64,000 nt of DNA from an uncultured Acidobacteriaceae bacterium (lineage in GTDB: Bacteria > Acidobacteriota > Terriglobia > Terriglobales > Acidobacteriaceae). Below are positions 8,189 to 60,405 of this stretch, in pieces (within the stretch, counting starts at the first letter, position 1; every line of letters starts with the position of its first letter). Below the pieces are notes generated by a model. That model did no database searches, was not told the origin of the DNA, and worked only from the letters and a program-made list of their open reading frames with translations. Location of the stretch: contig CAVXQR010000016.1 of NCBI GenBank assembly GCA_963763975.1, positions 240,442 to 304,441 of the forward strand, in the 5' to 3' direction. Both the position numbers and the translations under genes were made by a program.

Positions 8189-8240
8189 GTGGATAGTGGA
8201 TAGTGCATAGTGACTGATGGCCAGTGGCCGGTATCCATGG
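8189..8240. repeat. 7-nt tandem array (GTGGATA-type), immediately after the prolyl oligopeptidase stop
   Basis: gtggata gtggata gtgcata gtgactg atggcca gtggccg gtatcca. Confidence 0.75.
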
Positions 8241-8432
8241 ACGCGCCTTCAGACGTGCCGCACTGGCTATAGGAATCCGAGTTGGCTTTAAGCCGACGAC
8301 ACTCCGAAATGGCCGGTTTGTGCCACTGGGATTCGCTCTAGGTTCTTGACAACAGAAGAGTTGCGTACTACTGTTCCCTTCTTATCTTCCTTGGGCCCCA
8401 GGGCTTCTTCAAGCTTTGCCAGAGGAGGAACC

Positions 8433-8977
8433 ATGCGACGTTGCCTCATCGGTCTCAGCCTTCTGTTGTTGTTCGTTGCCGCCACTCCTGCCTTCGCCGA
8501 TCTAGCCGGAGCGACGGTCACCGTCAACTACCTCTATCCCGAGCAGAATGACATCTACGAAGTGCTGGGGACTGGGACCGTCGACGCAGCGGCGGCTTCA
8601 CCGTCAATTCGTTTGGCCAGCATGATCTCACCGTCTATCCCGACGAGATCACCCTGACCAACGTTGCCGGTGAGGACATTAACTTCACGGCTGCCGACTT
8701 CAACGGTTATGGCCTGGTGGTGGATTCCGGCGGATCACCGATCACCGGCGTGACCATCGCCTATAACGACATCGCGGGCTTCACAGCCAGCGACATCACC
8801 TTCGACGGCACCGACGTGTGGCTGAACCTGGAAGGTTTGACCACGACGCCTGGCCTCGACCTGCAACTCGACTTGCAGTTTGCCAACGGCACCACGCCCG
8901 AACCCAGCAGCCTGACGCTGATGGGCGTAGGCGCGCTGACCTTGCTGGGCGCGGCGCGGCGGAAATTGCTGCCGTAG
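8433..8977 (+). CDS. Small PEP-CTERM sorting-domain protein, split by a frameshift near 8575-8600
   Basis: TTGACA then GAGGAGG RBS then ATG 8433; signal peptide MRRCLIGLSLLLLFVAATPAFA in frame 0; C-terminal PEPSSLTLMGVGALTLLGAARRKL in frame 2; frames join at a GC-rich run. Confidence 0.6.
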
Positions 8978-9233
8978 AGCCGGCAGCGGCGCTGGCCATG
9001 TATTGTGCTCGTGAGAAAACGGAAGTGTGCGCGAACTCTCCCTCTTTGCGCTTGAGGGAGTTCTGCCCAGCCAGTGCCGCGAGGTTCACATCTGCCGTCG
9101 GCTAAAGCGAGCGAATGCGACGACGTCCACCCGGGGCTTACGCCCCGGGCTCACTGGGCTGCCGCCCTGGCGCGGATGACATCGTCGAAGCGGTCCGCTT
9201 GACTCAAACCCGATTCCCGCTTCCACGAGCCCC

Positions 9234-10442
9234 CTACCGCGGGTGCACCATCTCCTCCAGCCGCGTCAGCCGCTGCTCCAACTCTTCAATCTTCTGCTCC
9301 TGCGTGCCGATGACCTTCGCCTCCGCCTCCGCCCGCTGATACTGCTTCTGCACTTCATTCAACAGCATGGTGCTCAGGTACTGATAGCGAACGCTGTAAG
9401 GCTGGCCGTCGCTGTCGTAGGCCACCAGCTCGGGATAGACCTTCGCTACCTCTTCCGCAATCAGCCCATATTGCAGGGTCCGCTCGCCGTTGCTGTACTG
9501 TGCCTTGTAGAAGAACGTCACCGGTCGCAGTCGCATCAACGCGTCGGTGCTGCCGCCCATGTCTCGCACCTGCTCCTTGTAACGCAGCGAGGAAGCCATG
9601 GTGCCCAATTCGCCATTTGAGTCCACGTACACGGGCAAGGCGTTGTTCAAGACGGTGGCGTGGTACACACCGGCGATGTAAGCCGAGGTCTGATAGCGTC
9701 CGTCGCCAATGCGAATCGTGCCGGTGTCATACGGCGTCCCAGCATGGTTGATGAAAATATTGTTGCTGCCGGTATGGCTGGTCTCTCCCGAACCTGCGCC
9801 GCTGCCGAGATAGGTATTGCCGCTGCCAGTGCCGAGGTACGGGCCGGCATTATTGCCAACCAGAGTATTGTTGCTGGCGATGGTGACCTGGCCGCCGGCG
9901 CCTCCGCCGATCATGACGTTGCCGTTACCGCCTACCGTAAGCCCGGCCTGATAGCCAATGCCGATGTTGTTTTCTCCGCCGGGACTGCGCCATCCCGGCG
10001 AAGCGCCAACGAAAACGTTGAACGCTCCCTGGTTGGTGGTGCCGGCGTCCCAGCCCAGAAAGGTGTTGAAGCTGCCACCCTGCCCGGTATCAATACCTAG
10101 AGCCAGGTTCCCTGGAGCGGTCGCGCTCAATAGGGTCTTTCCGCCAAGGCTGTACGTCGTCGCGGCATTGATGCCGCCGTTGACGTCGAGCGTAGTGGCT
10201 GGCGCCTGGGTGCCAACTCCGATGCTGGATCCGTTCTGGTACATCACGGAACTCAGCAGATAGCTGTTGGTTCGCCAGATCGGAATGTAGTACGGCGTGC
10301 CGTCACCCCCCAGCACCGGGCCTGGCGGAAGGATGGAACCGTTGGGTGTCGCTGTGGCAGGCGCATGTTCAGACGGTTGCTGGGCAAAGCTGATGCAGGC
10401 GAAGGACAAAGCCAGGGCAAGTGCGAAACTGATGCGGCGCAT
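9234..10442 (-). CDS. Secreted Gly-rich repeat protein with C-terminal intramolecular-chaperone (peptidase S74, tail-fibre/endosialidase type) domain
   Basis: Internal start MRRISFALALALSFACISFAQ (signal peptide); Gly/Asn-rich repeats; C-terminal LRPVTFFYK...GLIAEEVAKVYPELV resembles the S74 auto-processing chaperone domain; coiled-coil tail. Confidence 0.6.
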   Translation of the reverse strand: MRRISFALALALSFACISFAQQPSEHAPATATPNGSILPPGPVLGGDGTPYYIPIWRTNSYLLSSVMYQNGSSIGVGTQAPATTLDVNGGINAATTYSLGGKTLLSATAPGNLALGIDTGQGGSFNTFLGWDAGTTNQGAFNVFVGASPGWRSPGGENNIGIGYQAGLTVGGNGNVMIGGGAGGQVTIASNNTLVGNNAGPYLGTGSGNTYLGSGAGSGETSHTGSNNIFINHAGTPYDTGTIRIGDGRYQTSAYIAGVYHATVLNNALPVYVDSNGELGTMASSLRYKEQVRDMGGSTDALMRLRPVTFFYKAQYSNGERTLQYGLIAEEVAKVYPELVAYDSDGQPYSVRYQYLSTMLLNEVQKQYQRAEAEAKVIGTQEQKIEELEQRLTRLEEMVHPR

Positions 10443-11029
10443 GGTCGCTCTCCTTTCGGCGCAAGACCGGTTACGAGTCGTCCATTTCGAGGCCAGAAGT
10501 ATGTTCCTGCTGGGGGAGGGCCTGCAAGTTCTTCCGTCCGGCTCGGAGGCTTGCTCGGTCGGAAAATGAACGCCGCCCTCGCGCACAATTCAAACCTCCG
10601 CATCACCCCATCGTTCCATTGACCCAACGCCCTTCAAAATGTTATAAAGACGTGCCTTATATGCTGTACCTAGATGTGTGTTCAGTTGCACACAAACAGG
10701 TGCAAGTTTTTCCCGACGCGGCCAAACCTCAACACTTCCGTCTTGGAGTGGAAGCGCGTTTCCGGGATTCCAGCAGGTCCAAGTCCCGTCTTCTGTGGTG
10801 CTCGATGTTGCGAGTCGTAGGCGGAGACTGCGTCGCCCTGACCTGCCGGGCGGACATTGATCTCATAGGAAACGCTAACGGCGGAGGCTCGCCTGAGAGC
10901 GCAAATCTGCAAGACGAACAACGTCATCATCCGGGACGCCCGCCGAACGTGTGCGGCGCACCCAGCGGAGGAACTCTTATGCACACTTGGCTAGCCGCAT
11001 CGCGGCGCCTGTCCACCATTCCGTCCGGC

Positions 11030-13465
<2,436 letters not shown>

Positions 13466-23625: not shown

Positions 23626-24413
23626 TGGCAGCACCGGGTGATGAAAGTTCCACCGGCGCCGGCGCTGGGCGAAAGTTGCCAGTAGCCAATGGGCGGCGAG
23701 TCGCTCTCGATGTTGCCGTCGGTCGTAACTTCCACGTTGTCCCACACTGTGGTACTGGTGCCGACGGCGGTGGCGTCGAAGTCCACGATGGGTGCGCTCG
23801 CGCCCGAGGTGCCGTAAAGCTCCTGACCAATCTGCACCCGGGTGGGAGGATTCATCGCGTTGTTCGTGGTCGCGATGTATTGATTGGCTGCCGTGGTCGC
23901 CGCGATGATCCAGCCGTCGCCGCTGACCGGCCGCGCGTCGCGGGTCATCACGTAGTCAACATGGTTGTTCAGTTCGTTGCCCGAGGGCGTGGCCAGCGGA
24001 TGAAAGAAGAAGCCGCCGCTGTTGCCACTGGAGGCGGGACGGTTCTCCGCCCAGAACAGATGCGTGGCGTCATCGCTGAACCATGCCGGGCCGGCGAGCG
24101 CTCCCATCTCCAGCCAGCACATGCCGTAGTTGCTGCAATTGGCGTTGCCGGAATCCACCATCCACATCTCGTCGTCCACAAAGCCGTCGCCGCCATTCAT
24201 GGGCATCAGCTTCACCGTGGCTTCCAGCGAAACCGCCGCCGGCCTCAGATTTTCCCAGTCCACGCGCCCGTAGCAGTGCGGGCTGCTGCAGTTGTAATTG
24301 CTTTTGCACGAGGTAAGCAGCGGAACCGCCGCGGCGAGAAGCAACATGGCCAGCGCGCGTTGCGGGCGCCGCCACAGCACGCCCCGCAGAAGTGAGGATA
24401 TGAATATCGCCAT
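23622..24413 (-). CDS. Hypothetical lipoprotein
   Basis: Internal start MAIFISSLL...LLAAAVPLLTSCKS (lipobox LTSC); Cys-rich; translationally coupled to 23098..23625. Confidence 0.4.
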   Translation of the reverse strand: MAIFISSLLRGVLWRRPQRALAMLLLAAAVPLLTSCKSNYNCSSPHCYGRVDWENLRPAAVSLEATVKLMPMNGGDGFVDDEMWMVDSGNANCSNYGMCWLEMGALAGPAWFSDDATHLFWAENRPASSGNSGGFFFHPLATPSGNELNNHVDYVMTRDARPVSGDGWIIAATTAANQYIATTNNAMNPPTRVQIGQELYGTSGASAPIVDFDATAVGTSTTVWDNVEVTTDGNIESDSPPIGYWQLSPSAGAGGTFITRCCQ

Positions 24414-24926
24414 GGGTTCGGGCGCAGACATCGGACGCACAGGTTTGCCTGGGTGCAAGCGATAATCGTCCGTCGTAAAAGGGTTTGTCAAGGGCGGCGC
24501 GCATTGCCCGCAAATGAGGAGTGCTTCAACCAGAGGCGAGTGTCGCCTGGCGGGGCGGCGCCTGCGCATTTCCACTCCGCTCAAACGCATACCGGCGCAT
24601 CAGCAGAAAGTAGAGGGCAATGGCTGAAATCACCACCGTGGAAATCAGGCCCACCACCGTACCGAACATGTACTCTCGCGGTGCGCGGAGAGCATGAAGC
24701 GACGCTGAGATCCGCGGCGAGTTTAGAAACCGCAGGTCCCTCGGCTCCGCTTCGCTGCGCTCGGGATGACAAGTCGTAAAGGTGTAGTCGCTGCGCTCGG
24801 GATGACAGGATTTAAAGTTGCGCTGCGCTCGGGATAACAGATCGTTAGGTTGTACCCGCTGCGCTCGAGAGGAAAGTTCGTACAGTGAGCACTCGGGATG
24901 AAGAGGCCTGCAGTGGGTCGCTCGAA

Positions 24927-24957
24927 CTATCCACTATCCACTACCCACTATCCACTG
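24927..24957. repeat. 7-nt array (TATCCAC-type) abutting the ffh stop
   Basis: ctatcca ctatcca ctaccca ctatcca ctgccc. Confidence 0.75.
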
Positions 24958-24959
24958 CC

Positions 24960-26318
24960 CTACATCCCCGGCATTTTCATTCCCGCCATGCGCCGGGCGA
25001 AGCTGGGCTTGCCCATGCTCTTGAACATCTTGCGCATCTGGGCGTACTGGCGCAGCAGGTGGTTCACTTCCTGCACGCTGGTGCCGGAGCCGCGCGCGAT
25101 GCGCTTGCGGCGGCTGCCGTTGATGACCTCGTGATGCTCGCGCTCGTAGGCGGTCATGGAGTTGATGATGGCCTCGACGCGGGTGATCTGCTTCTCGTCC
25201 ACCTTGTCGGCGGCCTGCTGCATGTTGGCGAAGGGGCCGATCTTGGGCATCATGCCCATGATGCATTGCAGCGAGCCCAGCTTCTTCACCTGGCGCAGCT
25301 GATCGCGGAAGTCTTCCAGCGAGAAGCCGTCGCCGCTGAGCGCCTTGCGCGCGAACTCTTCCGACTTTTTCTTGTCGAGCTTGGCTTCGGCTTTCTCGAT
25401 GAGCGAAAGAATGTCGCCCATGCCGAGGATGCGGCCGACGATGCGGTCGGGATGGAAGGGCTCGAGGGCGTCGTACTTTTCGCCGATGCCGATGAACTTG
25501 ATGGGCTGGCCGGTGACGTTGCGGATGGAGAGCGCCGCGCCGCCGCGGGCATCGCCGTCCATCTTGGTGAGCACCACGCCGGTGAGGGTGAGCTTGTCGT
25601 GGAATTCGTCGGCGGAGTTGACGGCGTCCTGGCCGGTCATGGAGTCGGCGACGAAGAGAATCTCCTGCGGATTCAGCAGCTTCTTCAGCGACTGCATCTC
25701 GTCCATCAACTGCTCGTCAATGTGCAGGCGGCCGGCGGTGTCAACGATGAGCACGTCGCAGCCGTTGTTGATGGCCTCGCGCCGCGCTTCTTTCGCCAGC
25801 CGCTCGACCGTGGCGGTGTTGGACTCGCTCACCGTGCCTTCGTAGAGCTGGGCCTTGATGGCCGCGGCGACAACCTTCAACTGCTCGCGCGCGGCCGGGC
25901 GATAGACGTCCACCGAAACCAGCATGGGACGATGGCCGCCCTTCTTGAGCCAGTGCGCCAGCTTGCCCGAGGTGGTGGTTTTGCCGGAACCCTGCAGGCC
26001 GGCCATCAGCACGACGGTAGGCGGCTGCGAGGCGAACTTGAGCTTGGCCGTGTCTTTGCCGAGCAAGTCGATCAGTTCGTCGCGAACGATCTTGACCACC
26101 TGTTCGGCGGGCGAGAGCGCGGTCATCACTTCCTGCCCAACGGCCTTCTCGCGAATGTGGTCGATCAGTTCCTTGACCACCTTGAAGTTGACGTCGGCTT
26201 CCAGCAGCGCCATGCGGATTTCGCGCAGCGCTTCGCCGATGTTCTCTTCGGTCAGCGTGCCCTGTCCGCGAAGGTTCTTGAAGGCGCGCTGCAGTTTGTC
26301 TGTAAGGTTCTCAAACAT
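24960..26318 (-). CDS. ffh: Signal recognition particle protein Ffh
   Basis: N, G (GLQGSGKTTT, DTAGR) and M domains conserved; 452 aa. Confidence 0.95.
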   Translation of the reverse strand: MFENLTDKLQRAFKNLRGQGTLTEENIGEALREIRMALLEADVNFKVVKELIDHIREKAVGQEVMTALSPAEQVVKIVRDELIDLLGKDTAKLKFASQPPTVVLMAGLQGSGKTTTSGKLAHWLKKGGHRPMLVSVDVYRPAAREQLKVVAAAIKAQLYEGTVSESNTATVERLAKEARREAINNGCDVLIVDTAGRLHIDEQLMDEMQSLKKLLNPQEILFVADSMTGQDAVNSADEFHDKLTLTGVVLTKMDGDARGGAALSIRNVTGQPIKFIGIGEKYDALEPFHPDRIVGRILGMGDILSLIEKAEAKLDKKKSEEFARKALSGDGFSLEDFRDQLRQVKKLGSLQCIMGMMPKIGPFANMQQAADKVDEKQITRVEAIINSMTAYEREHHEVINGSRRKRIARGSGTSVQEVNHLLRQYAQMRKMFKSMGKPSFARRMAGMKMPGM

Positions 26319-26382
26319 TGTCAGGAGTCCAAATCACAGGCTGGATGGGCGGAATTTGCGCTTCCGCCGTGACTTCAGAATA

Positions 26383-27402
26383 TCACGCAGGCTCGATGAT
26401 CCGCTTCCTTGCCGCGCTCATTACCTGGGCGGCCGCCGCTACAGTGTTGGCGTGGATGGTTACGGTGTCCTCGAGCTGCATGGCGTAACCGCCGGCGTAG
26501 GTCACCATCACCGGGATGCCGCGTGCCTGCGCGGCGCGGAACAGCAGCAAGTCGCGCCGCTTCAGTCCCTCGATGCTCAAATTGAGGCCGCCTAGCTGGT
26601 CCTCGCGATAGGGATCGGCGCCAGCGACATAACAGATCAGCTCCGGCTCAAACTGCCGCAGGCCGGAGCTGAGCGCGTTGTCTAGCCAGGCAAGATAGTC
26701 GGCGTCATTGCAGCCGTCAGGAAGGCCCACGTCAATGGACGACGCCGGCTTAACGTAAGGATAGTTGTCCTCCTGATGCAGCGAAATCGTGAAAACGTCC
26801 CTCACCCGACCTGGCCTGACGTTCGTGGCCGGCTGATGTCCCAGCACCGGCGCCGAGCCTGAGGGCAGCGGCGCCGCAGGACGCGCGGCGTTGCCAAAGA
26901 TAACGGCAGTGCCGTTGCCCTGGTGAACGTCGCAATCCACCGTCATGGCGCGACGGATCAGCCCGCGCTTCTGCAGCGAGCGGATGGCGACGGCGAAATC
27001 GTTGATCATGCAGAAGCCTTCGCCGTGGTCGGGAAAGGCATGATGGAAGCCGCCGCCCATGTTGACCGCGACCCCGTCCTTCAGCGCCAGTTCGGCCGCC
27101 AGCACCGAGCCGCCGGTGTGCAGCATGAAAGCGTCCACCACCTGCGGCGAGTAGGGAATCTCCATCTGCAGCTCTTCGCGGGCGCTCAGGGTGCCTTCCA
27201 TCAGCTTGCTCACGTAGTGCGGCGAGTGCACCAGCATCACGTCGGATTCGGCGGCCGGCTGCGGCTCGACGAAATCCGATTCGACCGCCAGGTGCTCGGC
27301 CAGCAGGCGCTCCCGAACCAGGCGGTATTTGTCGGCACGAAAGACGTGCTCGCCGATGGGAAGAAAATATTTCTCGCTATAGATCAGTTTGAAGGGCAGC
27401 AT
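26383..27402 (-). CDS. Histone deacetylase-family amidohydrolase (AcuC/HDAC-like) with Ala/Pro-rich insertion
   Basis: HHAFPDHGEGFCMINDFAVA, DCDVHQGNGT and GGGY motifs; start at MLPFKLIYSEKY; ~30-aa low-complexity insert between DVHQGNGT and FTISLHQ. Confidence 0.8.
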   Translation of the reverse strand: MLPFKLIYSEKYFLPIGEHVFRADKYRLVRERLLAEHLAVESDFVEPQPAAESDVMLVHSPHYVSKLMEGTLSAREELQMEIPYSPQVVDAFMLHTGGSVLAAELALKDGVAVNMGGGFHHAFPDHGEGFCMINDFAVAIRSLQKRGLIRRAMTVDCDVHQGNGTAVIFGNAARPAAPLPSGSAPVLGHQPATNVRPGRVRDVFTISLHQEDNYPYVKPASSIDVGLPDGCNDADYLAWLDNALSSGLRQFEPELICYVAGADPYREDQLGGLNLSIEGLKRRDLLLFRAAQARGIPVMVTYAGGYAMQLEDTVTIHANTVAAAAQVMSAARKRIIEPA

Positions 27403-28416: not shown

Positions 28417-28453
28417 ACGGTTGTCAGTTGTCCGTTGTCGGTTGGTCAGTTCC
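28417..28453. repeat. 7-nt array (GTTGTCN-type) between convergent permease and vapC stops
   Basis: ggttgtc agttgtc cgttgtc ggttggt cagttcc. Confidence 0.7.
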
Positions 28454-29832: not shown

Positions 29833-29980
29833 CTGTCAGCTGTCGGTTGTCAGTTGTCAGTTGTCCGTTGTCGGTTGTCAAGCCCCAATTCTTGACCTTG
29901 CAAGTGCTGCCCATCCCCAGGGCCGTTGGCTAAAAGCTAAGAGCTAAGAGCTAAGAGCTGACAACTGACGGCTGACGGCC
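29833..29980. repeat. Two 7-nt arrays of opposite polarity (TTGTCAG x7 and CTAAGAG/CTGACNN x7) with potential to form a long stem-loop, after the msrA stop
   Basis: ctgtcag ctgtcgg ttgtcag ttgtcag ttgtccg ttgtcgg ttgtcaa ...(spacer with ttgacc)... ctaaaag ctaagag ctaagag ctaagag ctgacaa ctgacgg ctgacgg. Confidence 0.75.
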
Positions 29981-30552: not shown

Positions 30553-31154
30553 CGTGGGCGTTGTTTTACCTGGTGTGCTTTCTGGTGGGGGTAACGCTGA
30601 GCGTGCTGTCGTTTGTCGGCGGAAGCTGGCACCTGCCGCACTTCCACGTGCATCTGCCGCACGGAAATCTGCCACATGCGCATGTGCCGCACGGCGCAGG
30701 ACATCCCGCGGGCGGCGGCCACGGCGCGGAGATGCCGTTCATCAACTTCGCCACCATCACCGCATTTCTGGCGTGGTTCGGCGGCTCGGGCTTTCTGCTG
30801 ACGCGCTATTCCATGCTGGCAGTCACGGCGGTAATGCTGATCGCGATTGGCTGCGGACTGGTGGGCTCGACGGTGATCTTCTGGTTCGTCGCCAAGCTGC
30901 TGATGGAGCACGACCGCGAGTTGGATCCGGCGGACTACGACCGCATCGGCGTGCTGGGACGCATCAGCAGCCCCATCCGCCAGGGCGGCACCGGCGAGAT
31001 GATTTTCTCGCAGCAAGGCACCCGCCACACCTGCGGCGTCCGCAGCGATACCGGCGAAGCCATGGCACGCGACGAGGAAGTCATCATCATGCGCTATGAG
31101 AAAGGGATTGCTTATGTACGGAAGTATGAAGAAATGGCGAAAGACAGGGGCTAG
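30549..31154 (+). CDS. NfeD-like membrane protein (short form) with His-rich loop
   Basis: 2-3 TM helices, C-terminal OB-fold-like segment (GVLGRISSPIRQGGTGEMIF...VIIMRYEKGIAYVRK); loop HLPHFHVHLPHGNLPHAHVPHGAGHPAGGGHG; precedes SPFH gene as in NfeD-SPFH operons. Confidence 0.7.
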   Translation: MTWALFYLVCFLVGVTLSVLSFVGGSWHLPHFHVHLPHGNLPHAHVPHGAGHPAGGGHGAEMPFINFATITAFLAWFGGSGFLLTRYSMLAVTAVMLIAIGCGLVGSTVIFWFVAKLLMEHDRELDPADYDRIGVLGRISSPIRQGGTGEMIFSQQGTRHTCGVRSDTGEAMARDEEVIIMRYEKGIAYVRKYEEMAKDRG

Positions 31155-31310
31155 GGACTAGGGGCCAGGGACTAGGGGCTAGAGACTCGGGACTGGGACT
31201 CGCAGTCAGCTGTCAGCCGTCAGCCGCCCCGAGCTGAAGGCTGAGAGCTGAGAGCTAATAGCTAAGAGCTAATAGCTAAGAGCTAATGGCTGATGGCTAG
31301 TTGCTAATTG
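31155..31310. repeat. ~22-unit 7-nt array filling the NfeD-flotillin intercistronic spacer (consensus drifts GGACTAG, then AGTCAGC, then AGCTAAG)
   Basis: ggactag gggccag ggactag gggctag agactcg ggactgg gactcgc agtcagc tgtcagc cgtcagc cgccccg agctgaa ggctgag agctgag agctaat agctaag agctaat agctaag agctaat ggctgat ggctagt tgctaat. Confidence 0.8.
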
Positions 31311-32954: not shown

Positions 32955-33015
32955 TGGCGAAGAGCGAATGGCGAATAGCGAAATCAAGCTGACGGCTGAC
33001 AGCCGAGAGCTAAAA
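32955..33015. repeat. 7-nt array (GCGAATN merging into CTGACNG and AGCTAA) between flotillin and pspA, next to a partial family-B element (32901-32948)
   Basis: tggcgaa gagcgaa tggcgaa tagcgaa atcaagc tgacggc tgacagc cgagagc taaaagg. Confidence 0.7.
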
Positions 33016-33688: not shown

Positions 33689-33733
33689 GGCAATTAGCAA
33701 TTAGCCGTTAGCCGTCAGTAATTAGTACTTAAC
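33689..33733. repeat. 7-nt array (GCAATTA/GCCGTYA) after the pspA stop
   Basis: gcaatta gcaatta gccgtta gccgtca gtaatta gtactta. Confidence 0.7.
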
Positions 33734-42235: not shown

Positions 42236-42236
42236 A

Positions 42237-42307
42237 AAGAGCTATTAGCAATTAGCTGTTAGCTATTAGCAAGCAAGCTGCCAGCCGTCAGCTATCAGCT
42301 ATCAAAC
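42237..42307. repeat. 7-nt array (AGCTATT/CAGCTAT) in the glyQ-glyS intercistronic spacer; an inverted family-B partial copy follows at 42372-42420
   Basis: agctatt agcaatt agctgtt agctatt agcaagc aagctgc cagccgt cagctat cagctat. Confidence 0.7.
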
Positions 42308-42438
42308 ACTATTGCGCAACCTTCATTTTCAACGACGGACAGAAGCAGCGATGTGATTCGAGTCACAGTCACTTCGAACATCCGACTTGGGTGCCCCGTT
42401 CTGGCCCGCCTTTGGCCAGGGCGGGGCTTTCGTTCTGT

Positions 42439-43515
42439 CTATGCTTTGCTGGCTGCCAACTGCTCGGCTTTGGGCTCGGGCTGTTTCGGCGTCGAACTCT
42501 CCGCCTGCGCCTTCTGCTGGTCCACGTACGCCTTGGCAACGCCGACGGCCAGCGCACGAATACGTGCGATCACGCCGACGCGCTCGGTCACGCTGATGGC
42601 GCCGCGCGCGTCCAGAATGTTGAACAGGTGCGAGCACTTCAGGCATAGGTCGAAAGCGCCCAGCACCGGAAAGCGGCGGATCGCCGCGAGACGCTCTTCG
42701 CTATTCGCCATTCGCTGTTCGCCAGAGGATCGCTCTTCGCCGTTCGCTGTTCGCTTTTCGCCAGAATCCGTCGAAGGCGCAGGCGACGCCAGCGCGCGAT
42801 ATTCCTCCAGCAGCGCCTGGCATTCTGCTTCATAGAGCTCCAAATGTTTCCAGGCCTTGGCCACGTCGGCCATCTCGAAGTTGTACACCGAGAATTGCAG
42901 CTCATCCTGCAAGCGAATCTCGCCGTACTTCACCGCACGGCCGTCGGGGCCGACCACCCAGGTGATGTCGTAGATCGAGTCCACATCCTGCAAAAATGCG
43001 GCGATGCGCTCCAGCCCATAGGTCAGCTCAGCCGAAATCGGATCGAGATCAATGCCGCCGCACTGCTGGAAGTAGGTGAACTGCGTGATCTCCAGGCCGT
43101 CGAGCATCACCTGCCAGCCGATGCCCCACGCGCCCAGCGTCGGCGATTCCCAGTTGTCTTCCTCGAACTTGATGTCATGCTGGCGCAGGTCAATGCCGAT
43201 GGCGGCCAGCGATTGCAGGTACAGTTCCTGCACATTCTCCGGCGGCGGTTTCAGGATGACCTGGTACTGCATGTGTTTGAACAGCCGGTTAGGATTCTCG
43301 CCATAGCGGCCGTCGGCCGGACGCCGCGAAGGCTGCACGTAGCCCACGCGATAGGGCCGCGGGCCCAGCACGCGCAGGAAAGTTTCCGGCGCCATGGTTC
43401 CGGCGCCCACTTCGACATCGTACGGCTGTTGCAGGACGCAGCCATTCTCAGCCCAGAAAGTTTGCAGGCGAAGCACCAACTGCTGGAAGGTCAACGGATT
43501 TTGCGAGGATGGCAA
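42439..43515 (-). CDS. glyQ: Glycine--tRNA ligase alpha subunit with 26-aa in-frame low-complexity insertion
   Basis: [33 protein letters not shown]...; insertion [25 protein letters not shown] encoded by 7-mer repeats at 42692-42769. Confidence 0.9.
42692..42769. repeat. Duplicated 39-nt block of 7-nt repeats (NNTTCGC x4 plus linker, twice) inside the glyQ coding sequence
   Basis: cgctcttcgctattcgccattcgctgttcgccagagga / tcgctcttcgccgttcgctgttcgcttttcgccagaatcc; shares 20 nt with the intergenic array at 32955. Confidence 0.75.
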
Positions 43516-43926
43516 GTGAGTCGTCCCTTGTTAAGGTACAGTCCGATTCAGGGTTTTGCGGATTCACGTTTGTCTTTTCATCTGCCGTCTGTATATGTCG
43601 TGCATTTAATGCAGCCAGTGCCAGCCGCGCTTGAGGTACGCCTCCGCATCATCTTCGGACTGGAAAGAGTCATATCCAACATGACAGATCATCGCATCCT
43701 CGATGCAAGCGACCTCCGCATCGCGGACCACGACACAGTCTCTTACGCTGGCTCTATGAACGCTCTCGATAAATGTGGCCACTGCCCAAATTACGAATCC
43801 ACCTGGCAACGACCATAATCCGCAAATCGCGAACCGTTCAGTGCGATGGCAAGCCCTCCTTCACCGTGCGGGACGACAGATTCATATCGGCAGCATGAAG
43901 TCCGGCCAATCTAGGCAGTCAGTCGC

Positions 43927-44664
43927 TTACAGCCGTGCGAGCATGGCCGCGGTGGTCAGCTTCTTATCAATGTGGCGCTCCAGGATTTGCACCAGGTAGC
44001 GCCGCAAGTCTGCGCCGTCTTTGGCCGACCACGGCTCAGCGGCAAAATCGTCCACCGGCGCACGAAACATCTGCATCGCCCGCAGCCGCGATTCCGCCGA
44101 CAGCTCCGACGACGCCAGCCGCTTGTGCTGCGCGCACATCAGCCCATCGGCCAGCGCGTGATAAAACGTCCGGCTGCCATTCAGCGTGCCGCCGCACGCG
44201 GCGCACTCGGTCAGCTCCGGCAGAAATCCCGTCAGCCGCACCAGCCAAAGCTGGAAGTACGTCAGCGGCATCCAGATGGAACCCGAACGCAACTGATGCA
44301 GCACCGATACGGCCAGCCGGAAGATGGCGTCGTTGGCCTCGCGGTCGGGCAGCAGCTCGTCCAGCGATTCGGCCATGTGCTCCAGCGCCACTACCCGCGG
44401 ATAATCCACCGTGTCCGACAGCGGTGACTCCAGGATGTCGCAGGAATCCAGCCGCGCCAGTTCCTGGCCTTCGCGATCTTCGTAATAGGCGCGCACCCAG
44501 GTCATGGGCTCCAGCGCGCCGCCGAAGCGCCGCTTGGACTTCTTGGCCGACCGCGCCACGCCCTTGACCTTGCCTTCCGCCCGGGTAAACAGCGTGACCA
44601 GTGCGTCGGCTTCGCGCAACGGATACGTCCGCAAAACGATCGCTTCCGACTGCTTCAGTGACAT
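43927..44664 (-). CDS. recO: DNA repair protein RecO
   Basis: MSLKQSEAIVLRTYPLREADALVTLFTRAEGKVKGVARSAKKSKRRFGGALEP OB-fold N-terminus; C-terminal Cys zinc motif (CAACGG). Confidence 0.85.
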   Translation of the reverse strand: MSLKQSEAIVLRTYPLREADALVTLFTRAEGKVKGVARSAKKSKRRFGGALEPMTWVRAYYEDREGQELARLDSCDILESPLSDTVDYPRVVALEHMAESLDELLPDREANDAIFRLAVSVLHQLRSGSIWMPLTYFQLWLVRLTGFLPELTECAACGGTLNGSRTFYHALADGLMCAQHKRLASSELSAESRLRAMQMFRAPVDDFAAEPWSAKDGADLRRYLVQILERHIDKKLTTAAMLARL

Positions 44665-46198: not shown

Positions 46199-46757
46199 CT
46201 ACGGAGAACTTTCGCGCACAGCTTGCCACTGTTCTTCTAAACCCAGTTCGCGCACCCAGTGAGCGATATAGGCGACATCGAGGCTGCCGCCCTGGGTACT
46301 GAAAATGCCGGTTGCATCCTGCAGTTGCCGCTCGGAGCCGCCAAGCTTCGCCCACCGCAATTTGGCAATGAGTACGTCCTCGGCCGATGCGACATAGACG
46401 GCGTTACCAGCAATGTCGATCCGCATGCGGCGTGTCATCGCGGTACGGCCGTACTCAGACTCTTCGGCGATGATGAAGTCCACTTTCCAGCCGGAGGTAT
46501 GGTCAATTACGTTGAACTGGCTGCGGTGTCGCGAGTGCTTCCAACGCCTGCTGTTCGTCAGCGTAATATTCGGAGGTTGAAAATTGGTTGACCAGCGCCA
46601 GCACTTGTGCCCGCGTCGGAGCGATAACGATGTCCACATCGCGAGTAGACCTGGAAGTCCCGTGCGCTGAGCTAGCCACCGACCCGGTCAGCATATAAGG
46701 AACGTTGGCGCGTTCTAGCACCACCACGACTCGCGTCAGCAGGCTTTCGAGGGTCAC
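46199..46757 (-). CDS. Nucleotidyltransferase-fold protein (minimal NTase / AbiEii-like, tentative), split by an indel near 46535
   Basis: N-terminus MTLESLLTRVVVVLERANVPYMLTGSVASSAHGTSRSTRDVDIVI (GS...D.D NTase motif); C-terminus in the next frame (ORF 46199..46639). Confidence 0.5.
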
Positions 46758-46969
46758 GATTGCGGCACAGGTCCGTACAGGAGGCGAATGAGCTCAGGCA
46801 ACAATTGATCGTCGGGTAAGTCAGGCCGGCGGCTGCGCAGACCTGCTAACGCGATGTTGCGCACCGATTCGCTCATCTCTAACGCAAGGCGAAGCCGCTC
46901 TTCCGTGGTCATACGGCGGAAAATGTCCCGCTGGATTGCGGCCGCGGACGCACTGGTATCGGAAGGCAT
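46754..46969 (-). CDS. Small protein translationally coupled to the nucleotidyltransferase (putative antitoxin-like partner)
   Basis: 71 aa (or 52 aa from MTTEERLRLALEMSESVRNIALAGL); ATGA overlap with downstream NTase gene. Confidence 0.35.
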   Translation of the reverse strand: MPSDTSASAAAIQRDIFRRMTTEERLRLALEMSESVRNIALAGLRSRRPDLPDDQLLPELIRLLYGPVPQS

Positions 46970-47208: not shown

Positions 47209-47258
47209 AAAGCTGAATGCCAAAAGCTAAGAGCTAAAAGCTAAGAGCTATCAGCTTC
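47209..47258. repeat. 7-nt array (AAGCTAA/GAGCTAA) abutting the rho stop
   Basis: aagctga atgccaa aagctaa gagctaa aagctaa gagctat cagcttc. Confidence 0.7.
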
Positions 47259-48515
<1,257 letters not shown>

Positions 48516-50933: not shown

Positions 50934-51096
50934 GCGGGAGCCGCACGCCTACCACAGTGGTTACAAGTGTACAGATTCCGCGTGGACTCGATGTGACCGC
51001 TCTCACCAGGCCGCGTGACAAGGAAGATGAAGCCGTGCCGTTTAGAAACCCGGTGCGCGCGTTCGGCGGGCACCCGCGCCCAAGCCGACGTTGCGC

Positions 51097-51170
51097 CCAT
51101 GTCGATGCCGTGCTCATGCCGATGCCGTGCTCATGCCGATGTTGCGCCGATGCCGAGGCCGTGCCGATGC
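51097..51170 (+). repeat. Tandem ~17-nt repeats (atgccgtgctcatgccg x ~4) in the long comM upstream intergenic region
   Basis: gtcgatgccgtgctcatgccgatgccgtgctcatgccgatgttgcgccgatgccgaggccgtgccgatgcg. Confidence 0.6.
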
Positions 51171-56303: not shown

Positions 56304-56843
56304 TTAGATTTCTTTGCGCATGCGCTGTTTGAGGCGGTTGATCTTGGTGGAAACGTTGGTCGGCGTGATGCCGAGAATCTCGGCGATCTCCCGCTGGCTG
56401 CGGTCTTCCAGATACAGCAGCAGCAGAGCGCGATCCAGCGGCGCCTGCCGATCAATAAAACTTTGCAGACGCTGCACGCGATCGCCGGCAACGGGGTCGG
56501 GAGCGCTTCCCGCGGTGTCGTGCAAGCTCTCGTCAAACGGCACCGAGACCTGGCGACGGCGAACCTCCTGCCGGACAAAGCTGATGGCCACGTTCAGCGC
56601 AATGCGGTACATCCAGGTGGTGAAGGGGCGCGCCGCATCGTAACGCGGCCACGCCCGCCAAAGCTGCGCGGCGATCTCCTGCACCAGGTCGGCGCGGTCC
56701 TCGGCATGCCAGCAATAGGTGTTAGCCACCTTGAACACGATGCCCTGGTTCGTCTCCAGGAGCGTTTCGAACTGTTGCCGGCGCGGCTCGTCCATGGCGA
56801 TCTCGGGATCCTCAATGCCGACCGAAGTAAGGGTTGCGTCCAC
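56304..56843 (-). CDS. RNA polymerase sigma-70 factor, ECF subfamily
   Basis: Region 2 (LVQEIAAQLWRAWPRYD...FTTWMYRIALN) and region 4 (SQREIAEILGITPTNVSTKINRLKQRMRKEI). Confidence 0.85.
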   Translation of the reverse strand: MDATLTSVGIEDPEIAMDEPRRQQFETLLETNQGIVFKVANTYCWHAEDRADLVQEIAAQLWRAWPRYDAARPFTTWMYRIALNVAISFVRQEVRRRQVSVPFDESLHDTAGSAPDPVAGDRVQRLQSFIDRQAPLDRALLLLYLEDRSQREIAEILGITPTNVSTKINRLKQRMRKEI

Positions 56844-56937: not shown

Positions 56938-56973
56938 AAGTTGTCGGTTGTCAGTTGTCGGTTGTCGGTAAGA
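56938..56973. repeat. 7-nt array (GTTGTCG-type) upstream of the ECF sigma operon
   Basis: aagttgt cggttgt cagttgt cggttgt cggtaag. Confidence 0.7.
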
Positions 56974-57371
56974 AAAGTCCCCAGAGGGAAATGAGGGTGA
57001 CCTATGGAGGTGCCAGTCGGGGCTGAGGGGAAATCGGGTGAAACACGACTGCAGGCGGAACCTACGTCAGAAAAGAAAAGTGGCGGAACTCTGTCCAGAA
57101 GCGCAGCGCCCAGTTGCACATCCAGAAGACCTTGCGGCCCAAGAATTCCGCCGACTCACGGACGACAGTGCGGTGGTTCGACCGGCACCTGCCTTCCTGC
57201 GCGCCGCTCTGCTGAAGCAGCGCTCAAACTTAATGAATGCATTCTTACATCGCGCCGCTGCGGCTGATATACCCCGTCCGCCGTATCCGGCCTACAACTT
57301 CGGTTGTAGAAGCGTCCGCCCCGACCCGAAGCGCGATCGGAGCGGACCATCCATGGACTGACTCGCGCTTA

Positions 57372-59671
57372 CACCGTGGCCGCCACAGCTTTTGCCGCCT
57401 TGCCGGCCAGCGGCGCGCTGCATTCCTGCGCGTCGACAACGGCAATGGTGGTCATGTTGACGATGTCCTCGACCTCCACACCCTTCTGCAGCAGGTGTAC
57501 CGGCTTGGCCATACCCGCCAGGATCGGGCCGACGGTTTCCGCCCCTGCCGATGGTCGCCAGCAGCTTGCAGGCGATGTTGGACGATTGCAGGTCGGGGAA
57601 AATCAGCACATTGGCTCCGCCCTTCAGCGCGGAGAACGGGAAAGCGGCTTCCAGACGCTGAGGATTGACGGCGATGTCGCCCTGGATTTCGCCGTCCACG
57701 ATGAGCGAAGGATCGGCGTAGCGTGCCAGTTCGGCGGCGCGCCGCATCTTCTCGCACTGCGGATGCTTGGTGCTGCCGAAGCTGGAGAACGACAACATGG
57801 CCACGTGCGGTTCAACGTTGAAGCGGCGGGCTTCCTGCGCGGCGCACAAAGCGATCTCCGCCAGGTCTTCCGCCGTGGGCTCGATGTTCACCGTGGCATC
57901 GGCCAGGAAGTACAGGTCGCCCTTGCGGGTGATGACCAGGTACACGCCCGACACCTTGTGGATGCCTTCGCGGACGCCGATGACCTGCAATGCCGGACGA
58001 ATGGTTTCGGGATAATTCTGGGTTACGCCAGCCACGATAGCGTCGGCATCGCCCATGCGGACCATCATGGAGCCGAAGATGTTGCGGTCGTTCATCATCT
58101 CGTCGGCTGCGCCCAGGGTGACCCCGCGGCGCTGACGGAGCCGGTAGAACTCGCGCACGTAATCCTGGCGGCGGGCCGCGGTTTCCGGCTCAACGATGAT
58201 CGCCTGGTCGAGGCAGATGCCCAACTCGGCGGCGTTGCGCTGGATTTCGTTGGTCCGTCCCAACAGCACGGGAATGGCAATCTTCTCTTCGATCAGCACA
58301 TGGCAGGCGCGCAGGATCTTCTGGTGCGAGCCTTCGGGAAAGACCACACGCTTGGGATCGGCCTGCGCCTTGTGGACCATCAGGCGCATCAACTCGTGGG
58401 CTTTGCCCAGCCGCGTCTCCAGTTGCTCGCGATACTCGTCGAGATTCACCGGGGTGCGGGCCACGCCGGTATCCATGGCGGCCTTGGCCACGGCCGCAGG
58501 CTTCCCACACCAGCACGCGCGGATCGAATGGCTTGGGGATGATGTAATCCACGCCGAACTTCAGGGTCTCGACGCCATAGGCGCGGCAGACCGAGTCGGG
58601 CACGTCTTCCTTGGCCAGCGCCGCCAGGGCGTAGGTAGCCGCCAGCTTCATCTCTTCGTTGATGCTGGTAGCATGCACGTCGAGCGCGCCGCGGAAGATG
58701 AAGGGGAATCCCAGCACGTTGTTCACCTGGTTGGGATAGTCGGAGCGGCCGGTCGCCATGATGATGTCGTCGCGCACCGCGCGGGCATCGTCGTAGGTAA
58801 TCTCGGGATCGGGATTGGCCATGGCGAACACCACCGGCCGCGGCGCCAGCGAGCGAATCATGTCCTGGGTGAACGCGCCCTTCTTGGAGAGGCCCAGCAG
58901 CACATCGGCGCCCGTGGCAGCGTCCGCCAGAGTACGCATGGTGGTCTCTTTGGCGAAGCGCTCCTTGTAGGGATTCATGCCTTCTTTGCGGCCTTTGTAA
59001 ACCACGCCCTTGGTGTCGACCAGGGTGATGTTCTCGCGCTTCACGCCCATGCAGACGTAGTGCTCGGCACAGGCGATGCCGGACGCGCCGGCTCCGTTGA
59101 CCACCACCTTGATCTGCTCCAGCTTCTTGCCGGTCAACTCAACCGAATTGGCCAGGGCAGCGCCCGAGATGATGGCGGTGCCGTGCTGATCGTCATGGAA
59201 GACCGGGATCTTCATGGTCTTCTTCAGGGTTTCCTCGATGTAGAAGCACTCGGGAGCCTTGATGTCTTCCAGGTTGATGCCGCCAAAGGTGGGTTCAAGC
59301 AACTGGCAGGCCCTGATGATTTCGTCGGGATTTTTGGTGTCGAGCTCGATGTCGAAGACGTCAATGTCGGCGAATCTCTTGAACAGGACGCCTTTGCCTT
59401 CCATCACCGGCTTGCCGGCGAGCGCGCCGATGTCGCCCAGTCCGAGCACCGCGGTCCCGTTGGTGACTACCGCTACCAGGTTCCCCTTGGCGGTGTACTT
59501 GAATGCGTCGTTGGGATTCTTTTCGATCTCCAGGCATGGGTCAGCAACGCCCGGCGTGTAGGCCAGGCTGAGATCGCGCTGCGTGCGACACGGCTTGGTG
59601 GACACGACTTCTATCTTGCCCGGCCGTTTCCCCTGGTGGTAGTCGAGTGCATCCTGCTTGGTGATAGACAT
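57372..59671 (-). CDS. maeB: NADP-dependent malic enzyme (malic enzyme plus PTA-like domains), interrupted by two 1-nt indels (~58497, ~57546)
   Basis: [22 protein letters not shown]... malic domain to DPRVLVW; [21 protein letters not shown]... PTA domain to KLLATIG; C-terminus [41 protein letters not shown] in a third frame. Confidence 0.85.
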
Positions 59672-59897
59672 TACGGCCTCCAGAATATGAATCGTCGAAA
59701 TATGAGTGCGGCGAGAACGCTCCAGCGCGGCAGGTTAGCAAAAGGGATAGAGGTGCGACGTGAAAGTACCGTGAAATCGGAAATCCCCAGGAACACACCG
59801 CTGCCGGGCCGGAGTCGGCTCCGGTATTGAGCATGTGCTTCTTATTGCCGCAGCAATAGTGCGGGGGTCACAGGAGGGTGTGATGGAGGACACCGGA

Positions 59898-59929
59898 GTA
59901 GTGGATAGTGGGTAGTGGATAGTGGATAG
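59898..59929. repeat. 7-nt array (ATAGTGG-type) upstream of the four-helix-bundle gene
   Basis: gtagtgg atagtgg gtagtgg atagtgg ataga. Confidence 0.7.
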
Positions 59930-59955
59930 AAAACGGGTGCAGAGGACCGAGACTT

Positions 59956-60345
59956 GTGACTAATGGCACAGTAAATAGTTATCGCGATCTGATTGCTTGG
60001 CAGAAAGCCGTGGATTCTGTGGTCAACGTTTATTCGGCGACCGAGTCGTTTCCTCGTGACGAGGTTTTCGGCCTAAGGAGCCAGATGCGACGCTGCGCCG
60101 TATCGGTGCCCAGCAACATTGCCGAAGGCCAAGGGCGCTCGACCAAAGGTGAGTTCATTCTGTTTCTCGGCCACGCGCGAGGGTCGCTGTTTGAATTGGA
60201 AACGCAGGCGCTCATTGCCGCGAGGCTGGGGTACATCCATGCGGACACAGTCCAAACTTTGACGGACGGCGCAGCAGAAGTTGCGCGCATCGTCAATGGG
60301 CTGCTGACCTCACTCGGGGTCTCGAGTCATGCAAGGTCCAAATGA
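59956..60345 (+). CDS. Four-helix-bundle protein of the 23S rRNA intervening-sequence / Avd-like family
   Basis: 129 aa; YRDLIAWQKAVDSVVNVYSATESFPRDEVFGLRSQMRRCAVSVPSNIAEGQGRSTKGEFILFLGHARGSLFELETQ matches TIGR02436-type IVS proteins. Confidence 0.7.
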   Translation: MTNGTVNSYRDLIAWQKAVDSVVNVYSATESFPRDEVFGLRSQMRRCAVSVPSNIAEGQGRSTKGEFILFLGHARGSLFELETQALIAARLGYIHADTVQTLTDGAAEVARIVNGLLTSLGVSSHARSK

Positions 60346-60360
60346 GGCGCCCTTCGGCTC

Positions 60361-60405
60361 TATCCACTATCCACTACCCACTATCCACTACCCACTATCC
60401 ACTGA
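60361..60405. repeat. 7-nt array (CTATCCA-type) between the four-helix-bundle gene and the nupC stop; last unit overlaps the nupC stop codon
   Basis: ctatcca ctatcca ctaccca ctatcca ctaccca ctatcca ctga. Confidence 0.75.

Follow-up and report, generated by a model that had tools for sequence, protein, structure and literature searches.

What produces tandem repeats with a unit of seven nucleotides, and why do they gather at the ends of genes? The question arose from a 64,000-nucleotide (nt) stretch of DNA of an uncultured Acidobacteriaceae bacterium (contig CAVXQR010000016.1, hereafter the window), in which an initial annotation, made from the sequence alone, had described arrays of 7-nt units between genes. 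These heptamer arrays are real, lie far above chance, and are a lineage-wide property of Terriglobales genomes that is not specific to the window. In our preferred explanation, to which we give a probability of roughly 0.6, slippage works in a 7-nt register, selection then restricts the arrays to non-coding DNA, local constraints act on their strand, and inverted pairing of arrays is frequent.

Arrays were located on the window with Tandem Repeats Finder (TRF), which gave about 14 period-7 loci from 8189 to 60403; the at least 14 loci, the unit types and the range of 4 to 22 units in the initial annotation agree with this result. With a minimum run length of 10 nt, the window has 8 exact self-matches of period 7, compared with 0.1 in 30 dinucleotide shuffles, and 10 of period 14, compared with 0.07; each of the periods 4-6, 8-13 and 15 gives 0-2. 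The excess over composition, without which the initial annotation would have given up its claim, is thus clearly present. In addition, higher-order periods of 14 and 21 nt are seen in the arrays. The unit families of the window are GTGGATA (x4), AGCTAAR (x4-5), TTGTCAG (x3-4) and GCGAANN (x2-3), and the largest of them have a conserved core, GC(U/G)AA. An assembly artefact was excluded, as arrays are found in both long-read and Illumina metagenome-assembled genomes (MAGs) and inside contigs of many studies. Array copy numbers may carry small errors, since the window and its relative L081 have split genes typical of long-read MAGs.

The arrays are listed below with their strand and the evidence used; TRF spans are those of the coordinates unless given separately, and TRF reports 31146-31308 as three abutting sub-arrays with about 23 units in all.

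8182..8212 (+): (TAGTGSR)n of the GTGGATA family, TRF span 8189-8212; after the TAG stop of the prolyl oligopeptidase gene, roughly in phase, with one 8-nt unit between; not structured alone, fold z = -0.35 (TRF, sequence, Pfam, 22-mer search).
24926..24962 (-): (GTGGRTA)5, TRF span 24926-24960; begins at the ffh TAG stop; sense strand GUGGAUA; fold z = +0.5 (TRF, sequence, Pfam, 22-mer search).
28420..28451 (+): (GTTGTCN)4, filling the 47-nt gap between an oppC-like permease gene (TAG stop at 28416) and a convergent PIN-domain gene (stop 28464); fold z = 0 (TRF, sequence, Pfam).
29834..29880 (+): (TGTCRGY)6.7, beginning 1 nt past the msrA TAG stop; 5' arm of a long hairpin (TRF, sequence).
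29929..29979 (+): (GCTAARA)4 then (GCTGACR)3, the GCTGACR part being the 3' arm that pairs with 29834-29880; directly downstream, a sigma-70-like promoter match (30019-30047) for a helix-turn-helix (HTH) gene (TRF, sequence, RNAfold).
31146..31200 (+): (AGGGRCT)8, G-rich, with G3-4 tracts at 7-nt spacing; its first CTAG is the TAG stop (31152-31154) of gene 30450-31154 (TRF, sequence).
31201..31255 (+): short inverted pair (GTCAGCY)3 / (GCTGARR)3, a local hairpin in mid-spacer according to the RNAfold structure (sequence, RNAfold).
31246..31310 (+): (AGCTAAK)8-9, reaching the flotillin Shine-Dalgarno site, AAGGAGG (TRF, sequence).
32955..33012 (+): (GCGAANR)4 then GCTGACG GCTGACA GCCGAGA GCTAAAA, TRF span 32955-32982; ends at the pspA Shine-Dalgarno site and start (33026) (TRF, sequence, Pfam).
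33690..33715 (+): (GCAATTA/GCCGTTA)3.7, 4 nt past the pspA TGA stop (TRF, sequence).
42240..42304 (-): (GCTGAYR)3-4 then (GCTAAYA)4 on the sense strand, finishing 4 nt ahead of the glyS ATG (42235), so that the start codon stands directly after the array (…GCTAATAGCTCTTTATG) (TRF, sequence).
42692..42761 (-): (GCGAANN)9-10 inside the glyQ open reading frame (ORF) (Pfam, sequence, alignment).
47211..47256 (no strand assigned): (AGCTAAR)6 on the plus strand, 2 nt past the rho TAG stop (TRF, sequence).
56940..56969 (-): (CGACAAC)4 as read on the sense strand; an ECF sigma-factor gene (56304-56843) follows about 97 nt downstream (TRF, sequence, Pfam).
59899..59929 (+): (TAGTGGR)4.4, in the divergent region between a malic-enzyme gene and a 23S-rRNA-IVP-family gene, 26 nt before the start of the latter (TRF, sequence, 22-mer search).
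60360..60403 (-): (GTGGRTA)6.3; nupC runs into it with its final two codons and its TAG stop (AGT GGA TAG) (TRF, sequence, Pfam).

The placement of these arrays is not random. A gene map based on codon bias and on GC content at third codon positions (GC3), combined with Pfam scans, shows that 8 of the 14 have a border no more than 7 nt away from a stop codon (prolyl oligopeptidase, ffh, oppC-like permease, msrA, membrane protein, pspA, rho, nupC; binomial p = 1e-5 when compared with a random position within spacers). Seven of these eight genes end in TAG, and in three of the eight (ffh, the membrane-protein gene upstream of flotillin, and nupC) the array overlaps or provides the stop. On the other side of the spacers, arrays finish directly 5' of the starts of flotillin, pspA and glyS. 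A stop-to-array distance of at most 3 nt was found in 17% of cases, compared with 3.7% under random placement, and pre-start arrays finish 10-25 nt upstream of starts. Hence the initial annotation was right about the bias towards stop codons and about operon spacers; its word "intergenic" applies to 13 of the 14 arrays, which are non-coding, but not to 42692-42761, which lies in frame in glyQ. The AGCTAAG array at 47211-47256 reads CUUAGCU in the 3' region of the rho transcript, and the initial identification of 30450-31154 as NfeD was dropped, as no Pfam match supports it. It had also stated that GTGGATA arrays give TAG in two of three frames with a stop-free complementary strand. The second part is correct; as for the first, at least three units give TAG in all three frames, because 7 = 1 mod 3.

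To see how far the arrays extend beyond one genome, we used a set of relatives comprising 80 loci (1.55 Mb) from a flotillin-based scan, with one genome per species and home-made gene calls. These relatives are Terriglobales, Acidobacteriaceae and Korobacteraceae MAGs with up to 96% protein identity to the window, in line with the Acidobacteria-like host proposed initially. An Acido-Lenti-1 RNA (Rfam RF01687; 51355-51402, minus strand; 43.3 bits against a gathering score of 37) agrees with the same placement. Period 7 is the commonest tandem-repeat period in the 80 loci (TRF). The 343 kb of non-coding sequence hold 144 arrays of period 7 and 66 of period 14, compared with 6, 20 and 30 for periods 6, 8 and 9. 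Coding sequence, 76% of the total, holds only 56 of the 256 arrays of period 7, 14 or 21, so that array density is about 11-fold higher outside genes; true 21-nt protein repeats, or ORFs called too long on a stop-free strand, make up most of these 56. The counts include orthologous sites and are not phylogenetically independent. The period-7 enrichment and the bias towards gene ends that the initial annotation proposed to look for are thus found in both the window and its relatives. Dozens of unit families occur in the relatives, the commonest being GGTCGTT/AACGACC, GCTAATT, GCTAGTT and CAGCTGT.

Two observations in the relatives concern ORFs next to arrays. In L033, L039, L043, L048, L052, L054, L063 and L074 (around 11390-11750), the flotillin-pspA spacer contains an ORF of about 60 amino acids (aa), resembling a glycine-rich membrane protein. 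It is bracketed by GGTCGTT and AACGACC arrays, with one AACGACC array ahead of each Shine-Dalgarno site. In L033, L042, L043, L052, L054 and L064 (around 4.3-4.9 kb), the called ORF of a protein of about 1100-1190 aa contains (TCAGCNN)n arrays some 110 codons from its beginning, where the stop-free strand most likely extends the ORF upstream of the true start. Arrays are therefore a trap for gene callers, as their stop-free strands lengthen ORFs.

Comparison of orthologous sites shows how the arrays change. Upstream of flotillin, about one in two of the 80 loci has an array at the matching place of the spacer, with units that differ by clade (GCTAATT/GCTAGTT, GCTGAGT, GCTGACA, GCTCGAA, CTGAGAA, GCAACGA); other loci have an array-free spacer of 10-25 nt. 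The closest retrievable relative, L081 (GlyQ 88% identical), keeps four arrays that belong to the families seen in the window: (GCTGAnn)4(GCTAATT)2 in its glyQ-glyS spacer, that is 6 units against 9 in the window, (GCGAAnA)2-3 at the matching place 5' of pspA, (GCAATTA)n at the orthologous place 3' of pspA, and degenerate heptamers 3' of rho. The array at the nupC stop has 6 units in the window, 3 in L095, a metagenome relative of 81-84% nt identity, and none in L081; the nupC end ISG* is encoded by AGC GGC TAA in L081, whereas the window has AGT GGA TAG followed by five further units. Copy number is thus unstable at nupC (6/3/0), in the glyQ-glyS spacer (9 vs 6) and in the length of an insert in GlyQ. 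Overall, position is kept while copy number and unit drift, with occasional loss, as slippage with turnover predicts, and the 14- and 21-nt higher-order periods are also in line with slippage. The slippage-driven evolution suggested at the outset fits these changes, and the proposed comparison of related genomes did reveal differences in presence and length between species.

The array inside glyQ shows what happens in a reading frame. On the coding strand, 42692-42761 reads GCGAAAA GCGAACA GCGAACG GCGAAGA and so on, in frame, and splits the Pfam tRNA-synt_2e (GlyRS-alpha) match at profile position 225. All 28 aligned relatives (80-90% identity) carry a 7-aa-periodic insert of variable length (SGEERxA/KSEER), built of GCGAARR heptamers in five related loci, and their GlyQ proteins range from 341 to 412 aa. 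A heptamer array is therefore resident in the essential glyQ gene throughout the family and changes only by frame-keeping steps. This in-frame persistence directly supports the part of the explanation that concerns filtering by selection. Arrays also generate hypervariable protein inserts. The C-terminal tail of GlyQ is hypervariable too.

A unit length that is not a multiple of three and a copy number that differs between relatives are what contingency loci would show, in which the number of units switches genes by phase variation, as the initial annotation had considered. However, arrays lie past stops or 5' of ribosome-binding sites, where a change of one unit affects neither the frame nor the Shine-Dalgarno-start spacing. 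Moreover, the neighbours are housekeeping genes (ffh, rho, glyQS, msrA), the sole coding array is in frame in 28 of 28 relatives, and the one strong promoter match contains no array. We regard this reading as largely refuted and give it very little weight.

In the explanation that we prefer, arrays would arise and be reshaped through slipped-strand mispairing that strongly favours 7-nt (14/21-nt) registers. The ortholog arrays that differ in copy number and unit, and the 14-nt higher-order structure, were observed directly. Purifying selection would then clear arrays from reading frames, a step suggested by the observed distribution, because a one-unit change shifts the frame. Such purging would lead arrays to accumulate in the short non-coding stretches between a stop codon and the next ribosome-binding site, and the glyQ array would be tolerated only through in-frame changes at a surface-insert position.

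Position also sets, statistically, which strand is tolerated. Arrays within 30 nt of a start have, on the sense strand, A and T fractions of 0.33 and 0.17 (A>T in 53 arrays, T>A in 16), post-stop arrays are slightly G/T-rich on the sense strand, and both effects keep their direction after a rough de-duplication for orthology. This bias indicates that the persisting strand of a unit depends on its place relative to translation signals: pre-start arrays are A-rich and T-poor, and several post-stop arrays carry TAG and even provide the stop codon. A fail-safe triple-frame stop as a general role was rejected, because post-stop arrays of Terriglobales carry stops on the sense strand in 7 cases and on the antisense strand in 11; it fits GTGGRTA and a few others only.

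The pre-start arrays bring in another possibility, that arrays or favoured families such as (UAGUGGR)n and pre-start GCUAAnn/AACGACC are cis-acting RNA platforms. There, an oligomeric RNA-binding protein (S1, Csp, CsrA-like, or a HutP/TRAP-like ring) or the ribosome would bind with a 7-nt period and set translation initiation, termination back-up or mRNA stability. Pre-start arrays adjoin the Shine-Dalgarno site on its 5' side or take its place; at the glyS start, none is recognisable either in the window (42236-42239) or in L081 (11234-11241). Their sense strands are A-rich, and array position is conserved across species at about 85-88% protein identity. HutP recognises UAG triplets 4 nt apart, which amounts to a 7-nt period. 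On the other hand, a single binding specificity could not cover the dozens of unrelated units. NAG does not occur in the commonest family, GGTCGTT/AACGACC, post-stop arrays follow no general sense-strand stop rule (7 vs 11), and many orthologous spacers are array-free with no obvious substitute. A common NAG-N4 motif of the HutP/TRAP type was discarded, as the largest window families have GC(U/G)AA as their core and GGTCGTT has no AG.

Many arrays have an inverted partner. Each non-coding array of the window and of the 80 loci was checked for a reverse-complement array no more than 400 nt away, and 62-89 of 212 arrays have one, depending on the threshold, compared with 1-6 when reversed-only or complemented-only decoys were used. 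The recurrent anatomy is a stop codon, an array, a loop (median 64 nt), the reverse-complement array, and then a Shine-Dalgarno site and start or a convergent stop. The arms co-vary between clades (AATTAGC...GCTAATT, ATTCAGC...GCTGAGT, GAGCCAC...GTGGCTC). Since they change together, either the pairing would be selected or the arms would template each other. With such pairs (about a third, or 30-40%, of the arrays of the relatives), the whole spacer may fold into one long stem-loop with a 7-nt-periodic stem. In the window, the pair in the msrA-HTH spacer (29834-29880 vs 29957-29979; partner score 18/21) gives the one strong hairpin: RNAfold of 29833-29994 yields -67.9 kcal/mol, compared with -47.4 for shuffles (z = -5.6). 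Only a minority of the window arrays fold, and GTGGATA arrays are unstructured (z about 0 or higher, the lowest being -0.35 at 8182..8212). The G tracts of 31146..31200 may allow a G-quadruplex. A strand signature that would tie the hairpins to RNA was sought and dropped: in 28 pairs, minimum free energy favours neither the sense nor the antisense fold (13 vs 15), and the two do not differ in G-U pairs (131 vs 162). Consequently, there is no signature of selection for pairing specifically in mRNA.

A role in termination, also proposed initially, is not supported. A terminator scan of 24001-44000, a range outside which the GTGGATA arrays were counted, gave no site at any array in that stretch. 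The msrA hairpin lacks a U tract, no array in 24001-44000 has a terminator-like one, and the combination of GC-rich hairpin and U tract that defines an intrinsic terminator is absent from the arrays of this range. In Rfam, no family matches any array, the sole matches being one tRNA and Acido-Lenti-1. We take the main effect of the arrays to be structural, in mRNA or DNA, as spacers, 3'-end or intercistronic hairpins and unstructured A-rich leaders. We do not think that they carry specific information, and most unpaired arrays are probably near-neutral.

Several observations weigh against slippage and selection as a sufficient account. The 80-locus counts are inflated by orthology, and de-duplication weakens the effects while keeping their direction. 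The stops of array-abutted genes are TAG in 59% of cases, compared with 34.5%. Further points come from the GTGGRTA family. An exact 22-mer, GTGGATAGTGGGTAGTGGATAG, is common to the window arrays at 24926, 59899 and 60360, and the array at 8189 matches it with two mismatches. GTGGATA stands at four loci in 64 kb, while none of 81 related loci has even two units. The 22-mer occurs in at least 120 metagenome contigs, and what follows refers to the contigs and arrays among the matches listed. Their GC content ranges from 0.38 to 0.71, and the proteins of two contigs fall in 90%-identity clusters named Blastocatellia bacterium and Promineifilum sp., the latter a member of Chloroflexota. GTGGRTA copy number ranges from 3 to 23. 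In total, 42 of 87 evaluable arrays begin at the stop of a same-strand ORF of at least 80 codons, against 8 of 87 in the control; this stop is TAG in 27 of the 42, and the array itself provides it in 22. The orientation is sharper for longer ORFs, with 29 sense and 4 antisense at stops for ORFs of at least 200 codons, and 20 and 1 for at least 300. Inverted TAYCCAC partners lie within 200 nt of 22 arrays.

Viral contigs were searched for exact matches, each with a scrambled control. The GTGGATA/GTGGGTA 22-mer gave 6 hits and its scramble, GGTAGATGGTGGATGGTAGATG, none; (TTGTCAG)3 gave 61 hits and (TGTGTCA)3 gave 3; (AGCTAAG)3 gave 3 hits and (AGACTAG)3 gave 4. TTGTCAG, which is also present in Nostoc, is thus about 20 times commoner than its scramble, a further point for specificity and not for slippage. 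The scrambled triplets, with their 3-4 hits each, lie far above a rough hand estimate of well under 1 hit (4^21, with an assumed collection size), which shows that heptamer arrays of all kinds of sequence form a general background. Above it stand a small number of strongly favoured families, and local slippage alone explains neither them nor their orientation.

These cross-phylum, orientation-specific GTGGRTA data point toward a specific function or a copy-and-paste mechanism, and for the favoured families we see in the two taken together a minor but real possibility. For RNA platforms, they add the sense bias at stops across taxa (42/87 vs 8/87; 29 vs 4) and the recurrence of one 14-mer across phyla, and the same idea was put forward for the TAACTGA repeats of Beggiatoaceae (PMC4679880). 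With the points against it given above, we judge this interpretation rather unlikely. That (UAGUGGA-UAGUGGG)n, perhaps with TTGTCAG and others, is a discrete, sequence-specific 3'-end element across bacterial phyla is a tentative proposal, about which we are equally doubtful. Such an element would stand in sense orientation precisely at the stop codons of unrelated genes, which it often provides, and would frequently have an inverted partner. If it were true, a dedicated factor would read a 7-/14-nt-periodic RNA or DNA signal at gene ends, or a copy-and-paste process would target stop codons, and bacterial heptamer arrays would be more than slippage debris.

Copy-and-paste has a concrete form in miniature mobile hairpins (MITE/REPIN-like), especially for the inverted pairs, which would spread inside a genome and now and then from one genome to another, inserting preferentially at TAG or TA near gene ends. 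It would account for one unit at several loci of a genome and its absence from relatives, for the cross-phylum occurrence including 6 viral contigs, for inverted pairs with short loops, and for arrays that start and finish on TAG next to an enrichment of TAG stops. However, clustering of the flanks of GTGGRTA arrays gave array-to-array matches only; sequences beyond the array and its partner are unrelated, so a larger mobile element around these arrays was rejected. No target-site duplication was seen, and no transposase or RAYT-like gene was noticed among the array-flanking genes, to which the Pfam scan was limited. In addition, window arrays are mostly unpaired, units drift gradually within arrays and between orthologues, and the nupC C-terminus is kept by synonymous recoding and not interrupted. 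We consider mobile hairpins improbable.

The GTGGATA unit also suggested titration of DnaA by tandem box cores, as its complement TATCCAC equals the 7-nt core of the DnaA box, within TTATCCACA. DnaA is universal and could account for recurrence across phyla. The DnaA box consensus is TT(A/T)TNCACA, with an invariant T4 position. Yet the commonest variant, GTGGGTA (TACCCAC), alters T4, on which ground the proposal was rejected. Both flanking box positions are mismatched as well, the orientation bias follows translation stops and not replication, and the other unit families are unrelated to the box. It is the least credible of the alternatives.

The genes of the window that adjoin arrays are the following.

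6034-8181 (+): prolyl oligopeptidase (Pfam).
24960-26318 (-): ffh (Pfam).
27544-28416 (+): oppC-like permease (Pfam).
28464-28907 (-): PIN-domain gene (Pfam).
29203-29832 (+): msrA (Pfam).
29995-30552 (+): HTH gene (gene map and Pfam).
30450-31154 (+): membrane-protein gene (gene map).
31308-32600 (+): flotillin (Pfam).
33026-33685 (+): pspA (Pfam).
40088-42235 (-): glyS (Pfam).
42439-43515 (-): glyQ (Pfam).
47259-48515 (-): rho (Pfam).
56304-56843 (-): ECF sigma factor (Pfam).
57292-59671 (-): maeB, split (Pfam).
59956-60345 (+): 23S-rRNA-IVP-family gene (Pfam).
60395-61747 (-): nupC (Pfam).

Two of these genes appear broken. Flotillin is seemingly split into 31308-32600 and 32518-32805 (+), either by a frameshift or through a sequencing error; the Flot C-terminal domain is in another frame and overlaps the Band_7 ORF where the latter ends. 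In maeB, the malic-enzyme domain and the phosphotransacetylase-like domain are found in different, overlapping frames, 57292-58491 and 58190-59671 (-). In L081, maeB is intact (767 aa), and glyS, Mg-chelatase and PPDK are split, which suggests indel errors in long-read MAGs.

Other repeats share the window with the heptamer arrays. A dispersed nested-hairpin repeat, GCCCCGCCCTRGCCAAA..GGCYAGAACGGGGC, has at least four copies (32901-32945 (+), 42385-42427 (-), 52858 (+), 55496 (+)), downstream of flotillin and glyQ among other sites, and is REP-like in appearance. At 24752-24882 (-), four tandem 36-nt units contain GTCATCCCGAGCGCAGCG, of which a single copy follows pspA (33759-33776, +). The motif CGCTCGGGATGACA is found in spacers of L014, L071 and L081, making it a second lineage-wide dispersed repeat. 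A 17/34-nt tandem repeat at 51074-51170 (GCCCATGCCGATGCCGT, 4.5 copies) is unrelated to heptamers. Downstream of rho, 46199-46969 (-) holds small genes, among them nucleotidyltransferase-like fragments and a weak Rv0078B-like antitoxin match (E = 5e-5; 23.6 bits, under the Pfam cut-off of 27.1 bits), and may be a degraded toxin-antitoxin locus.

How do these arrays compare with known heptamer systems? Cyanobacterial short tandemly repeated repetitive (STRR) sequences, known since 1990, are defined by heptanucleotide repeats. As here, their 7-nt units are in tandem and form several families per genome at dispersed non-coding loci, often between co-transcribed genes. The canonical STRR1-3 units, due to Mazel et al. 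in 1990, are reportedly CCCCAGT, TTGGTCA and CAACAGT; as arrays they were not found in the window, which has a single GTTGGTCA unit at 28441. In Nostoc PCC 7120, TTGTCAG x3 (44 copies) and ATTGCGA arrays are dispersed repeats (PMC2408588, Table 3). These units recur in the window arrays at 28420, 29834, 32955 and 42692, with GCGAAT(T) shared, so that the likeness to STRR noted initially is real down to unit sequence. The host differs, being a member of the Acidobacteriota (Terriglobales) with a GC content of about 0.60 and not a heterocystous cyanobacterium. So do the dominant units (GTGGRTA, AGCTAAR, GGTCGTT), the reverse-complement pairing across whole spacers and the array inside an essential gene.

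More generally, the window arrays, with tandem units of 7 nt in at least three copies and in excess of composition, belong with the long simple sequence repeats (SSRs; units of 5-11 nt), among which heptamers are likewise most abundant, intergenic and far beyond chance. According to the summaries in PMC4679880 and PMC4692102, the survey of Mrazek, Guo & Shah (2007) found the heptanucleotide class to be the commonest of the long SSRs in prokaryotes, mainly intergenic, and proposed polymerase slippage as its origin; Acidobacteria are not named among the richest genomes in what these summaries report. Our literature search found no paper linking Acidobacteria with heptanucleotide repeats or mentioning GTGGATA arrays.

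TAACTGA repeats occur in marine Beggiatoaceae, some Cyanobacteria and Bacteroidetes (MacGregor 2015, PMC4679880). They give stops in three frames, overlap stop codons, precede starts without a Shine-Dalgarno site, and have S1, Csp or CsrA-like proteins as proposed binders (PMC4679880). The arrays described here share with them a cross-phylum heptamer, three-frame stops in one orientation, overlap of the upstream stop, a place directly 5' of starts without a Shine-Dalgarno site and occasional copies within ORFs. In the case of GTGGRTA, the same array is found in distant phyla, oriented at stops, with a different unit. TAACTGA is, moreover, one mismatch from CAACTGA, which our analysis gives as the reverse complement of the window TTGTCAG family. 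The difference is that one unit dominates there, with one inverted repeat among 170 sets, whereas dozens of units and many pairs are found here.

In Xanthomonas and Nostoc, arrays of the G-rich heptamers GGGAATC / GGGGAYT stay at matching intergenic places across related species while their length and sequence vary extensively, and some form inverted pairs (Rehm et al. 2015, PMC4692102). The (AGGGRCT)8 array at 31146-31200 is of this G-tract type, but it is the only one of the window that is rich in G tracts. REP/BIME/REPIN elements are also dispersed intergenic stem-loops, in pairs, at gene 3' ends and in operon spacers. They are, however, fixed-sequence palindromes moved by RAYT transposases, whereas the inverted pairs described here have stems of tandem heptamers of many sequences, and the flanking genes scanned with Pfam include no transposase.

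Set against these systems, the arrays belong to a known kind of repeat, genuinely present throughout a lineage and, at the level of the phylum, in a new host. Hundreds of long-read MAGs exist for the Terriglobales, which are abundant in soil and offer a second rich lineage for the study of heptamers. The handles that they provide are co-varying inverted arms, an in-frame array in an aminoacyl-tRNA synthetase subunit and a cross-phylum 14-mer with a 7:1 orientation bias. With these data, the choice between a slippage bias, a mobile element and a bound signal becomes a set of testable questions.

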